Counted from the stretch's first letter, positions 4,625 through 17,220 are shown. The stretch: DNA of 19,364 bases from Thermoproteota archaeon (GCA_037917625.1 JAVCBY010000090.1:1-19364), one strand, 5' to 3'. The notes: a model not told the origin generated them from the letters alone. Made by a program: numbers and translations.

Positions 4625-5273
4625 CCGCTAACGCTGAGATCAATAAAGCGGAAATTAAGATAAATATAAGAGTAAAACCGGCTGAATATAATAAAGATTT
4701 ATATCTACTCATGCCGAAAGAAATTCTATGTATCCTGAATAAGATCCATGAGAACCAGATAATCGAGATCAAGGAGAGGATCGGAAACATTGAGTTAGGG
4801 AAGGAGAATAGGTAATCCATCATCTCAACGGAGAATCTCGATAGGAGATCCCTCCACCCAGTTCCCTCGCACGATATTATCCTACCGGGTAAGATAGCTA
4901 ATATAATTGTATTGAGTCCTCCCATGATGGCGTATATGATTGAACAATTGCTGATAAGATAGAAGTACTTTCTCCTCCTCATGTTGAGCTCCTTAGGTAC
5001 ATATCTCGAGAATAGAGCCACTGTGAGGAGCCAGCTCAGGGCTATGAGAGCCCAAGAGTATAGGAAGAGGGAGCTCTTCACCTCTAAGAAAGCTCTCACT
5101 CTCTCATCTAGAAAAGCGCTAGAGCAAGATATCTTAAGTTGCAAGAGGAGGAGGGAAGTGGCATTGAAGGTGAAGAAGAGGAAGAGTGAGATCATCGAAT
5201 ATATCGGGTCTAAATTCATCCCAAGGCCCCTCAAGTCTTCCTCTCTACCTAGGAGGAAACCCAGGATACTCAA
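4605..5273 (-). CDS. Hypothetical multi-pass membrane protein (about 5 TM, Yip1-like layout)
   Basis: About five hydrophobic segments; the TTG start overlaps the ABCE1 stop (TTGA), suggesting translational coupling. Confidence 0.75.
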   Translation of the reverse strand: MSILGFLLGREEDLRGLGMNLDPIYSMISLFLFFTFNATSLLLLQLKISCSSAFLDERVRAFLEVKSSLFLYSWALIALSWLLTVALFSRYVPKELNMRRRKYFYLISNCSIIYAIMGGLNTIILAILPGRIISCEGTGWRDLLSRFSVEMMDYLFSFPNSMFPILSLISIIWFSWILFRIHRISFGMSRYKSLLYSAGFTLIFILISALLISALAVTLLLL

Positions 5274-7045
5274 GGATAGTACCTCCCGGATGCTCTAGCC
5301 ATCTGATCTAGTTTGGATCCGGGCTTATTGACCCTGGGCCTGCCCGTATCTGGGTCCCTCCTGAAGGTGATATCTACGTCCATCAGGAACTCGTTAAGCC
5401 CTTCCCTGGGGTCCTTCGGTTCTGATGCGTAACCCTCTCTCCCAGGGATCCCCCTGAATATCATTATCCTATCGGAGTAAGTCTCTATGGAGAGTATATC
5501 GTGCTCAACAACAATAACTGCCTTCCTCTCCCCTTTTATCCTTCTCCTTATAGCTTTAGCTACGGAGAACCTAGCCTCAACATCTAGGAATGCGCTAGGC
5601 TCATCTATTAAGTAGATATCAGCCTCTCTACCGAGACAAGCTGCTATAGCTACCTTCTGAAGCTCACCACCGCTCAACTCATCCAAGTACCTATCTAGGA
5701 GCTGCTCAATACCGAGCCTCTTGATGACCTCCACTCTGAAGTATGGGCTGGAGTAATTCCGCTCAGCTACTTTCCTGAGGAGGGATTCAACGGTCCCATC
5801 ATAGCTGGGCTTGACGTACTGAGGCTTATAAGATATCTTAAGATTTGCGTTCAAGCTCCCTTCATCGGGTTGAAGCTCCCCCGCTAAGAGCCTTATGAAA
5901 GTGGTCTTTCCGATCCCATTAGGCCCAACTGCAACGACTACTTCGCCCACATATATCTGAGCGCCGCTCACACGGAGGGAGAATCCGTTTAAGCGTTTCA
6001 CCATGTCTGAGTAAGATATCAGTACCTCTGAGGAGGGCTCAGAAGGGGCTGACCTCTGCAAGAAGGATATAGCCTCATCCCTGAATCTGACGTTGTCATC
6101 AGGCAGATAGCCATCTAGGAATATGTTTATGCCCTCCCTAGTGGAATGCGGATGGCTAACGACACCGTACACACCTGGCTCACCGTAAAGTATGTGGACG
6201 TAATCGCTTAGGTAATCCAATATTGCTAGATCATGCTCAACAACTATCAAGGACTTATTCTTATTCTGGAGTTCCCTCAAGAGCTTAGCTGCTCTCATCC
6301 TCTGGAAGACATCTAGATAGTTCGTAGGTTCATCGAATATATAGAGATCACCCTCCCTCGAGTAAGCCGCAGCTATAGCTACCTTCTGAAGCTCACCACC
6401 GCTCAGCTCCCTCAGATCCCTATCCCTTATGTTCTCAAGCTCCAAAATTGAATCTACCTCATCGTACGAACCTCTCTCATCCACCCTCCTTAAGACATCA
6501 GATACCTTGCCCCTCACTACTTCGGGTATCTTATCTATCCTCTCCGGCTTCAAAATGACCCTTATCTCATTATTAATTAACTTCTTTAAGTAAGAATGGA
6601 GCTCAGATCCCCTGAACCTCTCTAAAATCTCATCCCATGAGACATCCCTATCTACGATCCCTAGATTGGGCTTTATCCTCCCCGAGAGTATCGAGATAGA
6701 TGTCGTCTTCCCGACGCCGTTCGGACCTATGAGGCCCAGCACCTTAGAGGGCCTGACTATGGGCAGCCTGAAGAGAGCGAACCCATTCACTCCATATCTA
6801 TGGACCTCCTCGCCCTCGATGGGTGCCGGGAGATTCACTATGGATATGGCACCAAATGGGCACTTCTTTACACAAATTCCGCATCCTGTACACAATTTCT
6901 CATCTATTACGAGTGTAGAATCAACTAGCTTTATTGTATCTTCCACCCCCATCCTTACCTCTGGGCAGTACTTTATGCACTCGAGACCGCACTTCTTAGG
7001 GTTGCACCTATCCCTATCGATCACAGCTATTCTCTTACTGGGCAA
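5270..7045 (-). CDS. rli: Ribosome recycling ATPase ABCE1/RLI
   Basis: N-terminal Fe-S domain (CNPKKCGLECIKYCP, CTGCGICVKKCP), two NBDs (GPNGVGKTT, GPNGIGKTT, two LSGGELQ), C-terminal ITFRRD...RPRVNK; SD GAGGTGA before TTG. Confidence 0.97.
   Translation of the reverse strand: MPSKRIAVIDRDRCNPKKCGLECIKYCPEVRMGVEDTIKLVDSTLVIDEKLCTGCGICVKKCPFGAISIVNLPAPIEGEEVHRYGVNGFALFRLPIVRPSKVLGLIGPNGVGKTTSISILSGRIKPNLGIVDRDVSWDEILERFRGSELHSYLKKLINNEIRVILKPERIDKIPEVVRGKVSDVLRRVDERGSYDEVDSILELENIRDRDLRELSGGELQKVAIAAAYSREGDLYIFDEPTNYLDVFQRMRAAKLLRELQNKNKSLIVVEHDLAILDYLSDYVHILYGEPGVYGVVSHPHSTREGINIFLDGYLPDDNVRFRDEAISFLQRSAPSEPSSEVLISYSDMVKRLNGFSLRVSGAQIYVGEVVVAVGPNGIGKTTFIRLLAGELQPDEGSLNANLKISYKPQYVKPSYDGTVESLLRKVAERNYSSPYFRVEVIKRLGIEQLLDRYLDELSGGELQKVAIAACLGREADIYLIDEPSAFLDVEARFSVAKAIRRRIKGERKAVIVVEHDILSIETYSDRIMIFRGIPGREGYASEPKDPREGLNEFLMDVDITFRRDPDTGRPRVNKPGSKLDQMARASGRYYP
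5643..5676. repeat. 34-bp perfect direct repeat, copy 1 (copy 2 at 6372-6405)
   Basis: gctatagctaccttctgaagctcaccaccgctca is identical at both positions; it encodes the ABC signature region. Confidence 0.9.
6372..6405. repeat. 34-bp perfect direct repeat, copy 2 (copy 1 at 5643-5676)
   Basis: Identical to 5643-5676. Confidence 0.9.
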
Positions 7046-11546: not shown

Positions 11547-11623
11547 TGGCGCCCGGGCCGGGATTTGAACCCGGGTCTGGGGCTCGACAGGCCCCTATGC
11601 TGGCCGGGCTACACCACCCGGGC
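11547..11623 (-). tRNA. tRNA-Asp (anticodon GUC), intronless, CCA encoded
   Basis: Reverse complement GCCCGGGTGGTGTAGCCCGGCCAGCATAGGGGCCTGTCGAGCCCCAGACCCGGGTTCAAATCCCGGCCCGGGCGCCA folds into a full cloverleaf with a TTCAAAT T-loop and a CT-GTC-GA anticodon loop. Confidence 0.97.
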
Positions 11624-11647: not shown

Positions 11648-11660
11648 TTATAAATCTTTC
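11648..11660 (-). promoter_or_regulatory. BRE/TATA promoter of tRNA-Asp, overlapping the stop codon of the endonuclease IV gene
   Basis: Minus strand GAAAGATTTATAA, about 25-30 nt upstream of tRNA position 1. Confidence 0.65.
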
Positions 11661-12499
11661 ACCTCGCTGAGGGCGCTCATGTAGAGGGCCCTCATCTTAA
11701 TTGAGTCCCTCTCGAGCACTGGCGACTCCGATATTATGATCCATCTCAAGCCATATTCCGCTATTATTTCAGCTAAAGGCTCGAATGGGGGTCCGTAGCC
11801 AGATCCTAGGTCGTGATGCATCCTCTCCCCCACTCCCGATTTAGAGAGCTCTACCTCAGTGAAGTGTATCACGAAGCCGTTCAGATCCCCTAGCCTCCTC
11901 TCAATGGTCCTCAAGATCCTCTCATAATCATCCCTACCCTTTATGCTTCCTCCCTCCCTCGCGTGGATGTGAGCGAAATCTATCGTGGGCCTCACTCCAT
12001 CTACCTCCTCAGACATCCTCAGGACCTCATCCAAGGATCCCAATTGGGATGGCTTGCCCGTGGTCTCAGGTCCGAGCTCCAAATCTATTCCCAGAGATCT
12101 AAATTCCTCTCTAACTCTCCTTAATGATTCTATAGCTGCCTTAAGGGCATCCTCCTCACTCATCTTCCCATAATACCCTGGATGGAATGTGATATGACCA
12201 GCGCCCATTTTGCTCGCAGCTACTCCGGAATCTATTAACCTCTTGATGCTAGCCTCTCCCTTCTCCTTGGAGCAGAGGTTTATCGCATACGGGGCATGTA
12301 AGGAGAGCATTATATCGTTTTCAGAGGCTTCCCTCCTCACCCAAGAGAGTAGATCCTCATTTTTCGGTATAGCCCTCACAGCTTGATACTCCATGGCATC
12401 GAGACCTATCTCCCTCAGGTAAGAGAAGGCCCTCTCCTTGGAAGCATCGAGCGGATAGCCGGCGGGTCCGAACCTAACTCTATCGATTAGCACGAGCAT
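11648..12499 (-). CDS. nfo: Endonuclease IV-like (AP endonuclease family 2) TIM-barrel protein
   Basis: RFGPAG, SLHAPYAINL, FHPGYY, GPETTGKPSQLGSLDE, IDFAHIHAR, HFT, HH, ISESP. Start ATG 12499 (leaderless, TATA at 12515-12522) or TTG 12514. Confidence 0.9.
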   Translation of the reverse strand: MLVLIDRVRFGPAGYPLDASKERAFSYLREIGLDAMEYQAVRAIPKNEDLLSWVRREASENDIMLSLHAPYAINLCSKEKGEASIKRLIDSGVAASKMGAGHITFHPGYYGKMSEEDALKAAIESLRRVREEFRSLGIDLELGPETTGKPSQLGSLDEVLRMSEEVDGVRPTIDFAHIHAREGGSIKGRDDYERILRTIERRLGDLNGFVIHFTEVELSKSGVGERMHHDLGSGYGPPFEPLAEIIAEYGLRWIIISESPVLERDSIKMRALYMSALSEVKDL

Positions 12500-12673
12500 T
12501 CCAGTGACGCTCAAAAGATAAAGGTTCCTGAAGTGAGAGGGTTCACTCCAGGAGAATATCGATAAAACTCGCTTTATTATTATGTTTCGGTCAATAATGA
12601 ATATATTTTTTCATTTATATGAATTAAAAGTTGAAAATGTTAATAATATGATGGAGATGCTATTTTATGCGCA

Positions 12674-12690
12674 GCGAAAGGTATTTATCT
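12674..12690 (+). promoter_or_regulatory. BRE/TATA promoter driving the structured RNA / radical SAM leader
   Basis: gcgaaag-gta-TTTATct; standard spacing puts the start near 12710, at the first base of the closing helix. Confidence 0.6.
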
Positions 12691-12710
12691 CACATCATCC
12701 AGTAGATCAT

Positions 12711-12846
12711 GGGTCACCCGGCTCGCTGCGGGCTTAGCCCCTTCGTGGGCTATCGTGACATAGTGCGGGGGAAGGGGCCCTACATTGGCCCCGATCATGG
12801 GCGTCCCAAAGGACGCCACCCCTCCGTACTTTGTGCCGGGTGACCC
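12711..12846 (+). ncRNA. Unidentified structured RNA (non-coding RNA or riboswitch-like leader)
   Basis: GC-rich island beside AT-rich DNA. 12-bp perfect closing helix 12711-12722/12835-12846; hairpins 12735-12752, 12774-12792, 12800-12817; stem 12758-12771/12821-12834 with G-U pairs that favour the + strand. Confidence 0.65.
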
Positions 12847-12872
12847 CACCTCCGCCTCCCTCGGTGGAGAGA

Positions 12873-13937
12873 ATGTGGTTCCTGAGGCCGGATTGTATAA
12901 CAGCATTTGAGGAAAGGGAGATAAGGGATTCCATACCTCGCTATATAGATGTAGTTGAGGGCAGGAAATCCCCTCTCTTCAAGCTCTCGAAGATAATCAG
13001 GCTTGAGCCCTCGGATGACCTTTGGAAAACCCATGAGGAAGGATTGAAGATCCTCAGGGAAATTTTAGAGGGAGATGAGAACCCTAGGAGGGGCGAAGAT
13101 GGAATATCCCTCTTAGATGTTAAGGTATACTTATCCCTCGAGCTCGCAGGGAAATGCAGGTTCTGCGAGTGGAAATGCGGTGTCAACAGGATTGAGGGAG
13201 AATCTGGAGTGTGTAGAGTGAGGGAAACGAGAGTTTCGAGTGGCTTCATCCACATGGGGGAAGAACCTCCAGTGAGTCCATCGGGCACTATATTCTTCTC
13301 AGGCTGCAATTTCAAGTGTATATACTGTCAGAACTGGGACATATCTCAATTCCCCGAGTCGGGGAGGATAGTATCTCCTGAGAAACTAGCAGCTCTCATG
13401 GATGATCTCAGGAGGAGGGGCGCTAGGAACATAAACTTAGTCGGTGGGGAGCCGACTCCCAACATACATACGATATTGCTCTCCCTCAGATATGCTTCGG
13501 AGGACTTCCCCGTGATATGGAACTCCAATATGTACATGAGTGAGGAGGGCATGAAGCTCCTGCTCGGCATCGTAGATCTTTGGCTCCCTGATTTCAAGTA
13601 TTGGAAGGATGAATGCGCCAGGACCTTGAGCGGAATCCCCAGGTATTCGGAAGTCGTTAGGAGGAACTTATCCATGGCTTATGAATTCCCGCCCGGGGAG
13701 ATTATAGTGAGGCATCTAGTCTTACCTAATCATGTAGATTGTTGCACTAAGCCTATACTGAGCTGGATATCGAGGAACATACCGAGAGCCCTCGTGAACA
13801 TAATGGACCAATATAGGCCGGAGTACAGAGCGCATCAGGTACCTGGGATGAATAGGAGGGTCAGCTCGGATGAGATTAGGGAAGCTTTCGAATTCGCGGA
13901 TAGCCTTAAGCTTAGATGGAGGTCCGTCAGCCGGTGA
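12873..13937 (+). CDS. Radical SAM protein, PflX-like (pyruvate formate-lyase activating enzyme-related)
   Basis: CRFCEWKCGVNR...GVC, HMGEEPP, GTIFFSGCNFKCIYCQNWDIS (CxxxCxxC), GGEPTP, WLPDFKY, RHLVLPNH, MDQYRP. Start ATG 12873 after SD GGTGGAG. Confidence 0.92.
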   Translation: MWFLRPDCITAFEEREIRDSIPRYIDVVEGRKSPLFKLSKIIRLEPSDDLWKTHEEGLKILREILEGDENPRRGEDGISLLDVKVYLSLELAGKCRFCEWKCGVNRIEGESGVCRVRETRVSSGFIHMGEEPPVSPSGTIFFSGCNFKCIYCQNWDISQFPESGRIVSPEKLAALMDDLRRRGARNINLVGGEPTPNIHTILLSLRYASEDFPVIWNSNMYMSEEGMKLLLGIVDLWLPDFKYWKDECARTLSGIPRYSEVVRRNLSMAYEFPPGEIIVRHLVLPNHVDCCTKPILSWISRNIPRALVNIMDQYRPEYRAHQVPGMNRRVSSDEIREAFEFADSLKLRWRSVSR

Positions 13938-14496
13938 CTAGGGAAAGGAGCTTCCACTTGAGCTCCTCAAGGCATCCCTCATTTAGGAGGAAGTGATCCG
14001 CATAGGCAAGGGCATCTCCGAGGTGAAATGCCTCTATCTCCTCCCTATCCTCCCTCAAGAATTCCTCATGGCTCCTCTTATCGAAACCCTCCCTCCTCCT
14101 AAGGGACGTCCTGATGAACCTAATCCATCTAGAGGATAATATTGCTATGGTTATGACATCTTCCCCAAACTCTTTTTTGAATTCATCAATTTCTTCAATA
14201 TTTCTTATACCATTTACCACATAACATCGGGGGGGAGGGGATCCCTTAATGACTTCTATAGCTAGCTTAGCGATAACGCTAGCCCCCTTCTCCCTCCTTA
14301 ACTCAATGCCAACTGACCTTAAGCTCTCTCTGGTTTTACTTAGCCCCTTCCTCTCAACCTCCTCGATGAGCAAATCGCTCATCCTTATTACCCTATACCC
14401 TAGAGCTTCCTCAAGCGCTTTCGAAGCTTCATCCTTCCCGCTGCCGGGCAGTCCCACTATCAGTACGATCGGCTTACCCGGGCATCCTGAGCCCAT
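13927..14496 (-). CDS. P-loop nucleotide kinase (UPF0200 / dephospho-CoA kinase-like family)
   Basis: GLPGSGKD Walker A, MSD, ELR, NGIRNIEE, REDREE, ADHFLLNEG. Confidence 0.85.
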   Translation of the reverse strand: MGSGCPGKPIVLIVGLPGSGKDEASKALEEALGYRVIRMSDLLIEEVERKGLSKTRESLRSVGIELRREKGASVIAKLAIEVIKGSPPPRCYVVNGIRNIEEIDEFKKEFGEDVITIAILSSRWIRFIRTSLRRREGFDKRSHEEFLREDREEIEAFHLGDALAYADHFLLNEGCLEELKWKLLSLVTG

Positions 14497-14565
14497 AGAC
14501 CCACCTTGAACCCAATAGCTGATTCCCTTTTAATATGGAACATAAGTCAAGTTAGGGGAATAAAT

Positions 14566-15381
14566 ATGATCTCGATAATAGAAGTTGAAGCGACTAGTCA
14601 GGGGGACGGAGTGATACCTTTCACTGGACCCTTCTTCAGGGCCGCTGTGCTGAGATCGATATCCTCTCAGGATCCTCTGCTCGCGAAAGCCCTGGAGCTA
14701 TCCTCTAAAAAGATATTCGTTGAGGCACTCAGGAAGGAGAGGAAGCAGATGCCATGCGGTTCCTTGGAGGAGTCAGTTTACATTGGCTCGGAGTACAGAG
14801 GATCCATAATAATATTTAATGATAATGTGATAAGTGATGCGATAAAATCATGGATATTCAAGAAACCCACCATAACGATAAAGGATATTCCATTTAAAGT
14901 GACATCGTACATGCATCAAGAGATAAATATACTGGACTTCATACAAGAAAATCCATGCAGGAATTTCAGGCTCCGCTTCCTCACGCCCACGTGCTTCAAG
15001 AGGGCGACTTCTCAGTACTGCTACCTCTACCCAAATCCCAGGCTTATCGTCTCCTCTCTCGCTTCAGCTTGGAATGCTCTCTCACCTAAGAAAGGTCCGG
15101 AAACTAGATTAGCAGCTACTTGGGCCGATCTCAGCGTTGTAGAGACGGGATACGAATTATGCACGACTAAACCTGTGGAGATGAGCGGGGAGAAGACATT
15201 CGTCGGTTTCATGGGCTGGGTGAACTATAAGGTGATAGATCACCCCGAATGGCATAGATCGTCGCACGAGGAGATGGCTAAATGGCTAGCGACTTATCTG
15301 ATGTTCGGGGAACTGATAGGAGTAGGATATATGAGGAACATGGGGTTCGGAAGGATAAAGTTTGAGGTTAAGAGGAAGTAA
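14566..15381 (+). CDS. cas6: CRISPR-associated endoribonuclease Cas6 (stand-alone)
   Basis: C-terminal G-rich loop GVGYMRNMGFG (GhGxxxxxGhG), FLTPTCFKR, YLYPNP, GFMGWVNY. Start ATG 14566 with TATA-like ttttaata at 14528-14535. Confidence 0.88.
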   Translation: MISIIEVEATSQGDGVIPFTGPFFRAAVLRSISSQDPLLAKALELSSKKIFVEALRKERKQMPCGSLEESVYIGSEYRGSIIIFNDNVISDAIKSWIFKKPTITIKDIPFKVTSYMHQEINILDFIQENPCRNFRLRFLTPTCFKRATSQYCYLYPNPRLIVSSLASAWNALSPKKGPETRLAATWADLSVVETGYELCTTKPVEMSGEKTFVGFMGWVNYKVIDHPEWHRSSHEEMAKWLATYLMFGELIGVGYMRNMGFGRIKFEVKRK

Positions 15382-15384
15382 CAG

Positions 15385-15777
15385 TTAAACAATAGCCTCT
15401 AACAAACCCCTCTTTGCTCTCTCCATTAGCAGGATCCCGCTCCTTAACTCAATTGCCTTGTGGTCGCTAGCTCCGAATATCCTCTTGAGCTCCCAGAAGA
15501 CCCTCCAAGTGCTAGTAGCGTCCTTGCATGAGGAGATTGATACGGTTAAGCTTCCAGATTCCGGCCATGTGTGAACGGCGGCATGAGATTCCCCTATTAT
15601 CGCGATGCTCAGGACCCCTCCATTGGGTTTCCGCATCGTTATTATATCGAATAGCGTAAGCCCGGAATTAATGACGGATTCTATCAATGCACTCTCCACG
15701 AAAGCGATATCCTCGAGTAGATTTCTGCTGACGCCGAAAAGCTCACCAATCACATGGTACTCGAAGGCCCTCTCCAT
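15385..15777 (-). CDS. speH: Pyruvoyl-dependent S-adenosylmethionine decarboxylase-family proenzyme (SpeH/SpeD class; arginine decarboxylase paralogue not excluded)
   Basis: HVIGELFG, GGV, GESHAAVHTWPE (E-S self-cleavage site), downstream Cys (SSC); strong SD GGAGGTGA. Confidence 0.85.
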   Translation of the reverse strand: MERAFEYHVIGELFGVSRNLLEDIAFVESALIESVINSGLTLFDIITMRKPNGGVLSIAIIGESHAAVHTWPESGSLTVSISSCKDATSTWRVFWELKRIFGASDHKAIELRSGILLMERAKRGLLEAIV

Positions 15778-15782
15778 TTTTT

Positions 15783-15831
15783 ACCTCACCTCCGCCTCCC
15801 TATACATAAAACGACTCATAATTTATTTAAA
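15783..15831 (-). promoter_or_regulatory. TATA box and purine-rich SD leader of the AdoMetDC-family gene
   Basis: TTTAAATA at 15824-15831; leader AGGGAGGCGGAGGTGAGGT before ATG 15777. Confidence 0.6.
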
Positions 15832-16011: not shown

Positions 16012-16119
16012 AATCCCCCAGGAAGAATCTTCATTGAGCTCAGTTAACTGAGAAGGGTCCGGAGATCAACTCCTGATGACCAGTTGAATAGATCCCCCCC
16101 TTGTGGGGGGAGGGGGATT
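16012..16119. other. Candidate structured intergenic element
   Basis: AATCCCCC...GGGGGATT inverted ends with several internal inverted repeats; U-rich tract follows on the minus strand. Confidence 0.3.
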
Positions 16120-16182
16120 ATATTAAGCTCCATCTCGAGTAGCTCGTAAGCTCTCCACTAAATGCATTATCCTCAGGGTCTG

Positions 16183-17220
16183 TCAGAAGAAGCCCTCTAG
16201 ACTCCCACTAAGGCTATACTCCTCACCCAATATTGTTCTAAGCATCCTCTTCAGGGTCTCACTCTTAACATCGATTTCGGGCTCCTCAGATATGCTCTTC
16301 CTCTTAGAGAGCCAATCATTTAATATCCTCTTCGAGTATTCCACCATCACATCCCTCCACCCAGCAGCATCCTCCAAATCCAATTCACGCTCTAAGGGAG
16401 CCCTTCCGAGCTCATTGTAGTACTCCTTACTTATGCCCTCCCCAGAGGAGCTCCTCTCGAAGGAGTAAAAGATCCAACCTAGGGAGATAAATTGTGAGAT
16501 CTCGGCATCCTCCCCCGAGAGGGAGAATTCATCCTGCCTGAAGCACACGAACTCATCTGCCCTGACGAGCTGATATATCTCATCGTAGAGAGGTTGAGCT
16601 TCCTCTTCCATCATTCTCACTGCTTCTAAGCTGAGGGAAAATCTCTTTCTGAATTCCTCGACAGACCAGCTTCCCAGGAGGATGCTTATCCTTCCGAATG
16701 CGTTGACGTTTCTATCCTTCAGGTATTCTGAAATTGATTCGAGAGCTAGCTTGATCTCCTCCTCCGATTTCTCACCTATAACTGAGGATCCTGGAAGATA
16801 ATTCAAGATTTCAGTCAGATCTTTGAAATTAGATACTTCAATATCCCTAATCCTAGCTAAAACTCTCTTGATTATCGCGGTAGATGAGAGGGGGTCCAGT
16901 AAGAGGGAGGGGTTTTGAGAGAAAGCTGAAGCGGCTGTTCCCCCAGCTATCCTCCCAAGCGTCCATAAGGAGTCTAAGACCCTCCATTCTCCCCCATCCT
17001 CTATCAAAATCATTGGGTTCAATCTACCGGATCTATTACTGCTCGGAGACGCCCTGTACTCCATCGAGAACCCGCATTTCACCTTCTTATTATCCACATT
17101 TAGATCCCTCAATAGTAAGAGCGAGAACCCCCCTCTGAGATCCAGCATCCATGGGGAATCCTCCCTTACGGCCTTTATGAGGTAATCAGCATAATGGTCC
17201 CTCTCAGATTTATATGTCAT
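16183..17220 (-). CDS. Hypothetical protein, 345 aa
   Basis: Long ORF, host-like codon usage, SD GGAGGTG at 17232-17238; no family recognised. Confidence 0.85.
   Translation of the reverse strand: MTYKSERDHYADYLIKAVREDSPWMLDLRGGFSLLLLRDLNVDNKKVKCGFSMEYRASPSSNRSGRLNPMILIEDGGEWRVLDSLWTLGRIAGGTAASAFSQNPSLLLDPLSSTAIIKRVLARIRDIEVSNFKDLTEILNYLPGSSVIGEKSEEEIKLALESISEYLKDRNVNAFGRISILLGSWSVEEFRKRFSLSLEAVRMMEEEAQPLYDEIYQLVRADEFVCFRQDEFSLSGEDAEISQFISLGWIFYSFERSSSGEGISKEYYNELGRAPLERELDLEDAAGWRDVMVEYSKRILNDWLSKRKSISEEPEIDVKSETLKRMLRTILGEEYSLSGSLEGFF

Follow-up and report, generated by a model that had tools for sequence, protein, structure and literature searches.

RNA-based regulation is thinly documented in Archaea. 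Among the closest described systems, SreA and SreB of Listeria monocytogenes are S-adenosylmethionine (SAM) riboswitch transcripts that reportedly act in trans on the 5′ untranslated region (UTR) of prfA. Small RNAs (sRNAs) of Firmicutes with C-rich seeds pair with Shine–Dalgarno (SD) sequences through UCCC motifs of the RNAIII type or through the C-rich regions of RoxS and FsrA, and the Methanosarcina mazei sRNA162 is an archaeal trans-acting sRNA that masks ribosome-binding sites. According to PMC5473149, only a few riboswitch classes, thiamine pyrophosphate (TPP) and fluoride, are credited to Archaea, and one riboswitch to Korarchaeota. Here we analyzed a 19,364-nucleotide (nt) stretch of DNA from a Thermoproteota archaeon (GCA_037917625.1, JAVCBY010000090.1:1-19364; the whole stretch is called "the window" below), in which the structured 5′ leader RNA of a radical SAM gene carries a C/U-rich tail complementary to the predicted 5′ UTR of an AdoMet_dc-family gene, here called speH.

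The features that define this arrangement are the following.

12682–12688, + strand: TATA-like box TATTTAT of the leader RNA, a putative promoter element centred 26 nt before the closing stem's first G (12711).
12711–12847, + strand: structured RNA domain of about 137 nt, delimited by folding, RNAalifold and a covariance model.
12843–12861, + strand: C/U-rich tail with the anti-speH segment, resembling the 3′ end of 16S ribosomal RNA (rRNA) and overlapping the last 5 nt of the closing stem, P1.
12863–12869, + strand: SD-like GGTGGAG of the radical SAM gene, predicted to form a 7-base-pair (bp) hairpin with the tail at 12850–12856.
12873–13937, + strand: radical SAM gene of 354 amino acids (aa), PflA/NrdG activase-like (Pfam PF04055, 63.7 bits; PF13353, 45.2 bits).
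15385–15777, − strand: AdoMet_dc-family gene ("speH") of 130 aa, a pyruvoyl decarboxylase by family (Pfam PF02675, 86.9 bits; cut-off 25).
15778–15801, − strand: predicted whole speH 5′ UTR of 24 nt, with the SD GGAGGTGA at 15786–15793; 15783–15801 is complementary to the tail, and the 5′ end is placed by the position of the TATA-like box.
15824–15831, − strand: TATA-like box of speH (TTTAAATA on the − strand), a putative promoter element about 26 nt upstream of 15801.

We consider it probable, judging from the sequences compared below, that the tail forms a trans RNA–RNA duplex with the speH 5′ UTR, masks its SD and lowers speH translation. In this model, the four-helix leader RNA of the radical SAM gene would begin at about 12711 and present a C/U-rich, single-stranded segment directly 3′ of its 12-bp closing stem. 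This segment would pair in trans with the speH 5′ UTR from about its first nucleotide through the SD, over 15–19 bp here and 12–21 bp in relatives, and the resulting duplex would hide the ribosome-binding site of speH and reduce its translation. In the genome that contains the window (the own genome), duplex formation would also disrupt the weak hairpin that this tail forms with the SD of the radical SAM gene, releasing that SD. The model takes both strands to be transcribed, the duplex to form in the cell and its effect on speH to be repressive; the structured domain may serve as a sensor, a scaffold or a stabilizer.

The two copies of the matching sequence, 12843–12861 and 15783–15801, are identical on the + strand at 18 of 19 positions, 15 of them contiguous (12847–12861 = 15787–15801). 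The first copy ends 12 nt 5′ of the radical SAM start codon (ATG 12873, +), and the second lies 6 nt upstream of the speH start (15777, −). Both the extent of the match and its orientation, one copy preceding the + strand radical SAM gene and the other preceding the − strand speH, are thereby confirmed as a first-pass annotation of this stretch had given them. Each copy would be transcribed with its gene, and the radical SAM and speH RNAs would therefore be mutually antisense at the repeats.

Across the own genome assembly (1,223,236 bases in 116 contigs, about 84% complete), the 15-mer core occurs exactly twice, both times in the window, and no other 15-mer site with at most one mismatch was found in these 1.22 Mb. 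For the 37-nt region 12836–12872, the speH leader is the only non-self perfect complement of at least 14 nt in this genome; one further locus offers a 13-mer complement, and four loci do so at k = 12. A duplex-energy scan of the same genome (40-nt windows, step 10, both strands) ranked the speH leader as the best non-self partner of the tail at −39.0 kcal/mol, with the next at −35.5 kcal/mol. The genome-wide count suggested by the first-pass annotation thus came out in favor of its proposal, as no other leader matches as well.

Within the 19-kb window itself, 17 direct and 7 inverted repeat families of at least 15 nt are present, including another exact 15-mer pair. The match is thus unexceptional on this scale, and the case for more than chance therefore rests on relatives rather than on the window alone. 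A chance match, or a pair of direct repeats bounding a mobile 2.9-kb cassette, could draw on these other chance repeats of 15–20 nt and on the estimate of the first-pass annotation that such a match would arise by chance a few percent of the time. We regard this explanation as scarcely credible, since the match is conserved and covaries across four genera.

To describe this conservation, we compared the stretch upstream of the radical SAM start with the 30–40 nt before the speH start in the loci of relatives, using the longest contiguous Watson–Crick complementarity as the measure. At least 12 contiguous pairs are present in 19 of the 23 genomes that hold both sequences (genera examined: g1, g2, g4 and g5), so that the match is indeed kept in relatives. 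In G006, G008, G044, G046 and G013, one partner lies beyond the contig end.

Genus g1, 16 genomes: 13–21 contiguous pairs in 15 of 16; G019 has 5.
Genus g2, 3 genomes: 14 contiguous pairs (18 with G-U) in all 3.
Genus g4, 1 genome: 12 contiguous pairs.
Genus g5, 3 genomes: 10 pairs in G024 (13 with G-U), 6 in G047 and 7 in G045; none reaches 12.

The helix always covers the speH SD and extends 5′ to roughly the nucleotide at which the mRNA is predicted to begin; in g1 and g2, the start of complementarity coincides with the predicted speH transcript start. The TTTTTAAA/TTTTTATT box upstream of speH is kept in relatives, and an A/T-rich TATA-like box precedes the first G of the closing stem in 17 of 17 aligned relatives, the distance having been measured in the window. 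The usual spacing of archaeal promoters would place the leader start at the closing stem and the speH start at the first complementary nucleotide.

Although the pairing is preserved, the paired sequences themselves vary by clade, with five variants at the 12-bp level and a weaker sixth in G024 (g5). We anchored the helix on the leader motif GGAGGUG and tabulated its columns in 20 genomes, G019 and G047 being excluded for lack of the helix. Columns −8, −5, −4, −2, −1 and +7 each show two or three Watson–Crick pair types that have changed on both sides; at column −1, for example, C-G occurs in 11 genomes, U-A in 8 and A-U in 1. Among the interior differences between the DNA copies, 4 of the 5 counted are G-U compatible. 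When six clade representatives were used, the true assignment of tails to leaders was the best of 720 permutations, and with seven representatives 2 of 5,040 permutations reach the score of the true assignment.

The pairing is also specific to speH within the locus and to the cognate leader within each clade. In the same genomes, the leaders of the kinase gene, the 345-aa open reading frame (ORF) and the TIM-barrel gene (described below) offer only 5–11 contiguous pairs, and tails and leaders taken from different clades share only the 7-nt SD core, giving 7 contiguous pairs. The longest match seen, a perfect 21-mer complement, is found in G002, where speH is located on contig C16, apart from the RNA and the radical SAM gene on contig C20. 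No kinase, Cas6 or speH gene was found within 4.6 kb downstream on C20; these are on C16. Since the partners are on different contigs, proximity or local repeats are not the cause of the match. The core proposal of the first-pass annotation, that the tail pairs with the speH leader in trans, is therefore supported at the sequence level by its retention in the 19 genomes, by the six covarying columns and by its persistence in G002.

The resemblance of the tail to the 16S 3′ end raises a further explanation, namely that the tail is a cis-acting anti-SD of the radical SAM gene only and resembles the complement of speH through shared SD-like features. We judge this very unlikely. The tail does imitate the 16S 3′ end and, in the window, is predicted to pair with the SD of its own gene, and SD/anti-SD composition alone yields the 7 contiguous pairs seen between clades; however, the complement of speH spans 13–21 bp, against longest downstream cis runs of 4–10 bp, the covariation falls at positions 5′ of the SD and beyond the reach of the rRNA, and a long distance separates the segment from the start codon in g2 and g4. 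A role of the rRNA as a partner of both sequences was also considered. One and the same 16S 3′ end is found in G012, G015 and G001, one from each of the three main g1 clades, whose helices differ (the own genome assembly contains no 16S contig). Pairing with rRNA therefore leaves the variable columns, which fall mostly 5′ of the SD, unexplained, and the rRNA was ruled out as a third partner.

The covariation likewise bears on the proposal that both copies are DNA operators for a single regulator and that RNA complementarity is a by-product. The copies are direct repeats on the same DNA strand, and the speH copy overlaps the predicted transcription start, a usual position for an archaeal repressor. 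The other copy, however, lies about 135–150 nt downstream of the predicted leader start or, in g2 and g4, 56–86 nt ahead of the radical SAM start, positions untypical of an operator. Six columns change between clades while the copies stay matched, so that a regulator and two sites would need to shift together, and the G-U compatibility of most interior differences between the copies (4 of 5) is relevant to RNA and not to DNA. Apart from the 345-aa ORF, no gene for a DNA-binding protein was found among the neighbors scanned. Taken together, these observations make shared operators a distinctly unlikely account.

Several observations weigh against repression of speH by the tail. The duplex energies of other G-rich genomic sites fall short by only 3.5 kcal/mol, and complementarity of CCUCC with GGAGG and their flanks is expected between any anti-SD-like sequence and a strong SD. 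The relatives are not independent, and the covariation amounts to a handful of events rather than 20. Both DNA copies are direct repeats, with a DNA-reading factor formally possible, and the transcript ends are placed solely by the TATA-like boxes. Finally, G019 (g1) and G047 and G045 (g5) have both genes and no pairing, and G024 has only 10 bp; in view of the three genomes without pairing, the pairing is therefore dispensable in some lineages.

Genus g3 provides a lineage in which the leader is kept and speH is not found beside it. Its loci (L153–L155, L163) retain the RNA, the radical SAM gene, the kinase and Cas6, and the tail is A/U-rich with no C-rich segment. An AdoMet_dc gene was not found in four of five g3 genomes (71–93% complete), and none is present in the locus, a distribution that fits the proposed pairing.

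To place the trans duplex beside the cis alternatives, we predicted energies with ViennaRNA, at 37 °C and also at 85 °C, a temperature chosen from the growth conditions of the lineage. The cis hairpin between tail positions 12850–12856 and the SD of the radical SAM gene (7 bp) has a predicted energy of −12.5 kcal/mol at 37 °C and −2.0 kcal/mol at 85 °C. At 85 °C, the trans duplex is predicted at −14.7 kcal/mol with a net cofolding gain of −12.0 kcal/mol, and the structured domain is still folded. In the window, cofolding with the speH leader is predicted to release the radical SAM SD.

This cis pairing is not a constant property of the locus. In one g2 genome, the segment can form 9 bp in cis with a partner that precedes the radical SAM start (−23.9 kcal/mol), and this partner is not constant within the genus; in g1C and g5, the best cis pairing found is only 4 bp. 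The distance from the tail to the radical SAM start is 12 nt here and 56–86 nt in g2 and g4. Consequently, sequestration of the leader's own SD was not upheld as a universal feature, as cis pairing is short or variable across clades. The first-pass annotation had suggested that the tail switches between blocking its own SD and blocking speH; the cis half of this switch agrees with the 7-bp hairpin in the window and partly with g2, and it does not extend to g1C and g5, with their 4 bp, or to g2 and g4, where the tail stands 56–86 nt away.

Additional elements surround the tail in g2 (L157, L158, L160). The anti-speH segment is followed by a hairpin of a G-run and a C-run and then by a U-rich tract, about 60–80 nt upstream of the radical SAM start; ahead of the segment, another G-run permits an alternative hairpin. 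The hairpin and U-rich tract could be a terminator that yields a stand-alone small RNA.

The same cis pairings invite the reading that the pairing is real and serves another purpose, with the speH leader acting on the SD of the radical SAM gene, or with the duplex marking both mRNAs for joint cleavage or stabilization. In its favor, the tail also pairs with its own SD over 7 bp in the window and cofolding frees that SD, the g2 segment can have the 9-bp cis partner described above (−23.9 kcal/mol), and a gene for a Cas6-family endoribonuclease stands between the two genes in every genus examined. However, the helix always lies on the speH SD while the distance to the radical SAM start varies from 12 to 86 nt, the cis pairing shrinks to 4 bp in g1C and g5 and its partner is inconstant within g2, and no tie between Cas6 and the leader RNA was found. 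We consider another purpose of this kind unlikely, and return to masking of the speH SD by the tail as the preferred interpretation.

The domain that carries the tail is itself a conserved structure. It consists of a perfect 12-bp closing stem, P1 (12711–12722 with 12836–12847), enclosing three hairpins, and the + strand folds with z = −5.2, none of 200 shuffles being equally stable, compared with a weaker z = −3.9 for the − strand. RNAalifold analysis of 17 sequences yielded 36 consensus pairs, four of which change on both sides, three of these in the closing stem. By BLAST, 17 of the other 20 genomes of this genus contain the region, compared with 0 of 20 from outside the genus. A covariance model built from the 17-sequence alignment recovered the RNA in 18 of the 20 other genus genomes, before the PflA-like radical SAM gene, both misses being 70% complete.

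In sister genera, the model was run directly on the loci, and three of these genera have weaker forms of the RNA. Weaker model matches upstream of the radical SAM gene were obtained in four g3 loci (27.6–31.6 bits) and in G047 of g5 (27.3 bits), and partial matches at this position in g2 (14.8–24.5 bits). In g4, no covariance-model match on the correct strand was found, and the same closing stem is visible by eye. A scan of the contigs of 80 loci found the RNA only in loci already known from the genome search, together with partial matches in L081 and L093. A metagenome scan with the radical SAM alignment gave, among the matches listed, only distant homologues, at most 50% identical; the best 44 of 80 metagenome loci gave no match to the RNA model at E up to 0.01, and no lineage was gained.

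Opposite the structured RNA, the − strand contains an overlapping 73-aa ORF (12685–12906), most likely an artefact of the G+C-rich RNA given the covariation of the stem.

In one relative, G003 (L054, 1501–2450), the RNA is kept at 135 bits in front of a decayed radical SAM gene. The remnant contains no ORF above 55 aa, residues 182–353 are recognizable at 34% identity, and the tail has diverged; a speH ortholog was not found, the contig ending there. This decay hints that the RNA may have a role beyond its own gene.

With Rfam 15 at gathering thresholds, only a tRNA was detected in the window. At E up to 10, region 12500–12950 gave only two chance-level matches on the − strand (CssrA, 14.6 bits; PyrR205, 12.1 bits), and the SAM riboswitch families in the Rfam library gave no match to the structured domain. 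The SAM connection drawn by the first-pass annotation is accordingly left unsupported for the domain, which has no Rfam match of any kind, and amounts to a guess from the shared substrate of the two enzymes. We entertain only tentatively that the domain is a new archaeal riboswitch class, a sensor of a metabolite from the SAM or polyamine pathways with a trans expression platform. Folding that depends on the ligand would uncover or bury the tail, which would thus switch between the ribosome-binding sites of its own gene and of the S-adenosylmethionine decarboxylase (AdoMetDC) mRNA. Under this reading, candidate ligands would be compounds such as SAM, decarboxylated SAM, methylthioadenosine, 5′-deoxyadenosine or a polyamine.

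The genes around these elements are listed below.

11550–11623, − strand: tRNA (74% G+C, 59.4 bits).
11648–12514, − strand: AP_endonuc_2/xylose isomerase-like TIM-barrel gene.
13927–14496, − strand: P-loop kinase-like gene (AAA_17), with synteny kept.
14506–15381, + strand: Cas6 homologue (Pfam PF10040, 70.3 bits; TIGR01877, 73 bits against a cut-off of 58.65).
16183–17220, − strand: 345-aa ORF without a family.

Between the TIM-barrel gene and the radical SAM gene lies an AT-rich spacer followed by the G+C-rich structured stretch. The radical SAM protein matches NCBIfam models only below their cut-offs and has no PDB relative by sequence, and the Atlas clusters to which it belongs bear only generic names of the type pyruvate formate-lyase activating enzyme-like. 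For the Cas6 homologue, ATG 14566 is the likely start, since relatives align only from about residue 13–29.

The identity of the presumed target is less sharply defined. The speH product scores 71.7 bits against the TIGR03330 equivalog, just under the cut-off of 75.65, and among solved structures it is closest to bacterial AdoMetDC proenzymes (E = 1.7e-13). In Thermoproteota, the AdoMet_dc family includes arginine decarboxylases. The target may thus be AdoMetDC or a related decarboxylase. A second AdoMet_dc-family gene is present in the own genome (C65:5367–5699, +; 25% identical to the window gene), and similar paralogues occur in four of five g1 genomes searched. No complement of at least 12 nt to the tail region was listed on contig C65 in the genome-wide scan.

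The order TIM-barrel, RNA, radical SAM, kinase, Cas6, speH, 345-aa ORF is fixed in g1 (in the loci examined, G002 excepted), g2, g4 and g5, and g3 has the same order with speH missing from the locus. This constancy counts against the cassette alternative of the first-pass annotation, in which the two copies would be direct repeats bounding the 2.9-kb block from radical SAM to speH. The block shows no presence/absence variation and contains no integrase, transposase or other mobility gene, and in G002 the two copies lie on different contigs. The mobile cassette was rejected on these grounds.

Other observations concern the surroundings. The Cas6 gene stands between the kinase and speH in loci from five genera (those of g3 without speH), away from CRISPR arrays. 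The own genome has its arrays on C40 and C97 and another Cas6 on contig C15; the CRISPR repeat k-mers inspected showed no resemblance to the RNA by eye. The 400-nt spacer between speH and the 345-aa ORF contains a G/C-rich palindromic stretch at 16085–16120, a C run followed by a G run. Farther away, a 116-nt direct repeat with 73% identity (5580–5695 and 6309–6424) lies inside a 591-aa ORF (5270–7045, −) and is probably an internal protein repeat.

Collectively, the locus presents a covariation-backed hypothesis, in an uncultivated hyperthermophile lineage of hot-spring archaea, in which the tail of a conserved, structured leader RNA is directed at the ribosome-binding site of a gene in the polyamine pathway, and natural compensatory variants already exist among its clades. 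What appears to be new is a structured archaeal leader RNA outside the curated families, whereas the putative antisense control of a ribosome-binding site is of a known kind. If the domain binds a metabolite, it would represent a new riboswitch class and a trans-acting mode for Archaea, as well as the first functional clue for a widespread, uncharacterized archaeal radical SAM family. Should the trans-riboswitch interpretation hold, the locus would constitute an mRNA-to-mRNA switch that divides SAM between the two enzymes using it, and Archaea would gain their first trans-acting riboswitch.

Our search of the noncoding-RNA and riboswitch literature on Korarchaeum and Korarchaeota found no description of such an RNA. 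Like the archaeal TPP and fluoride riboswitches, the domain is a conserved multi-helix leader with an anti-SD-like segment beside an SD, as in translational expression platforms; it differs in matching none of their classes, and trans complementarity is not a feature of those classes. The arrangement resembles SreA/SreB in that part of a gene's structured 5′ leader RNA is complementary to the 5′ UTR of a different mRNA. In contrast to SreA/SreB, the domain matches neither a SAM riboswitch nor any other Rfam family, its host is archaeal, and no terminator lies here between the tail and its own coding region, so that the mRNA leader may itself act as the regulator; here the pairing covers the target SD and nearly the whole UTR.

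With the C-rich-seed sRNAs of Firmicutes, the tail shares an unpaired C/U-rich segment that mimics the rRNA anti-SD and would occlude a G-rich ribosome-binding site. Those sRNAs have several targets and short seeds, whereas the tail has one apparent target, to which it is complementary over 12–21 bp that covary beyond the SD. The likeness to sRNA162 lies in an archaeal RNA antisense to a 5′ UTR and its ribosome-binding site; here, however, the putative regulator is a conserved structured domain of 137 nt, fused to an mRNA leader in a Korarchaeum-like lineage.

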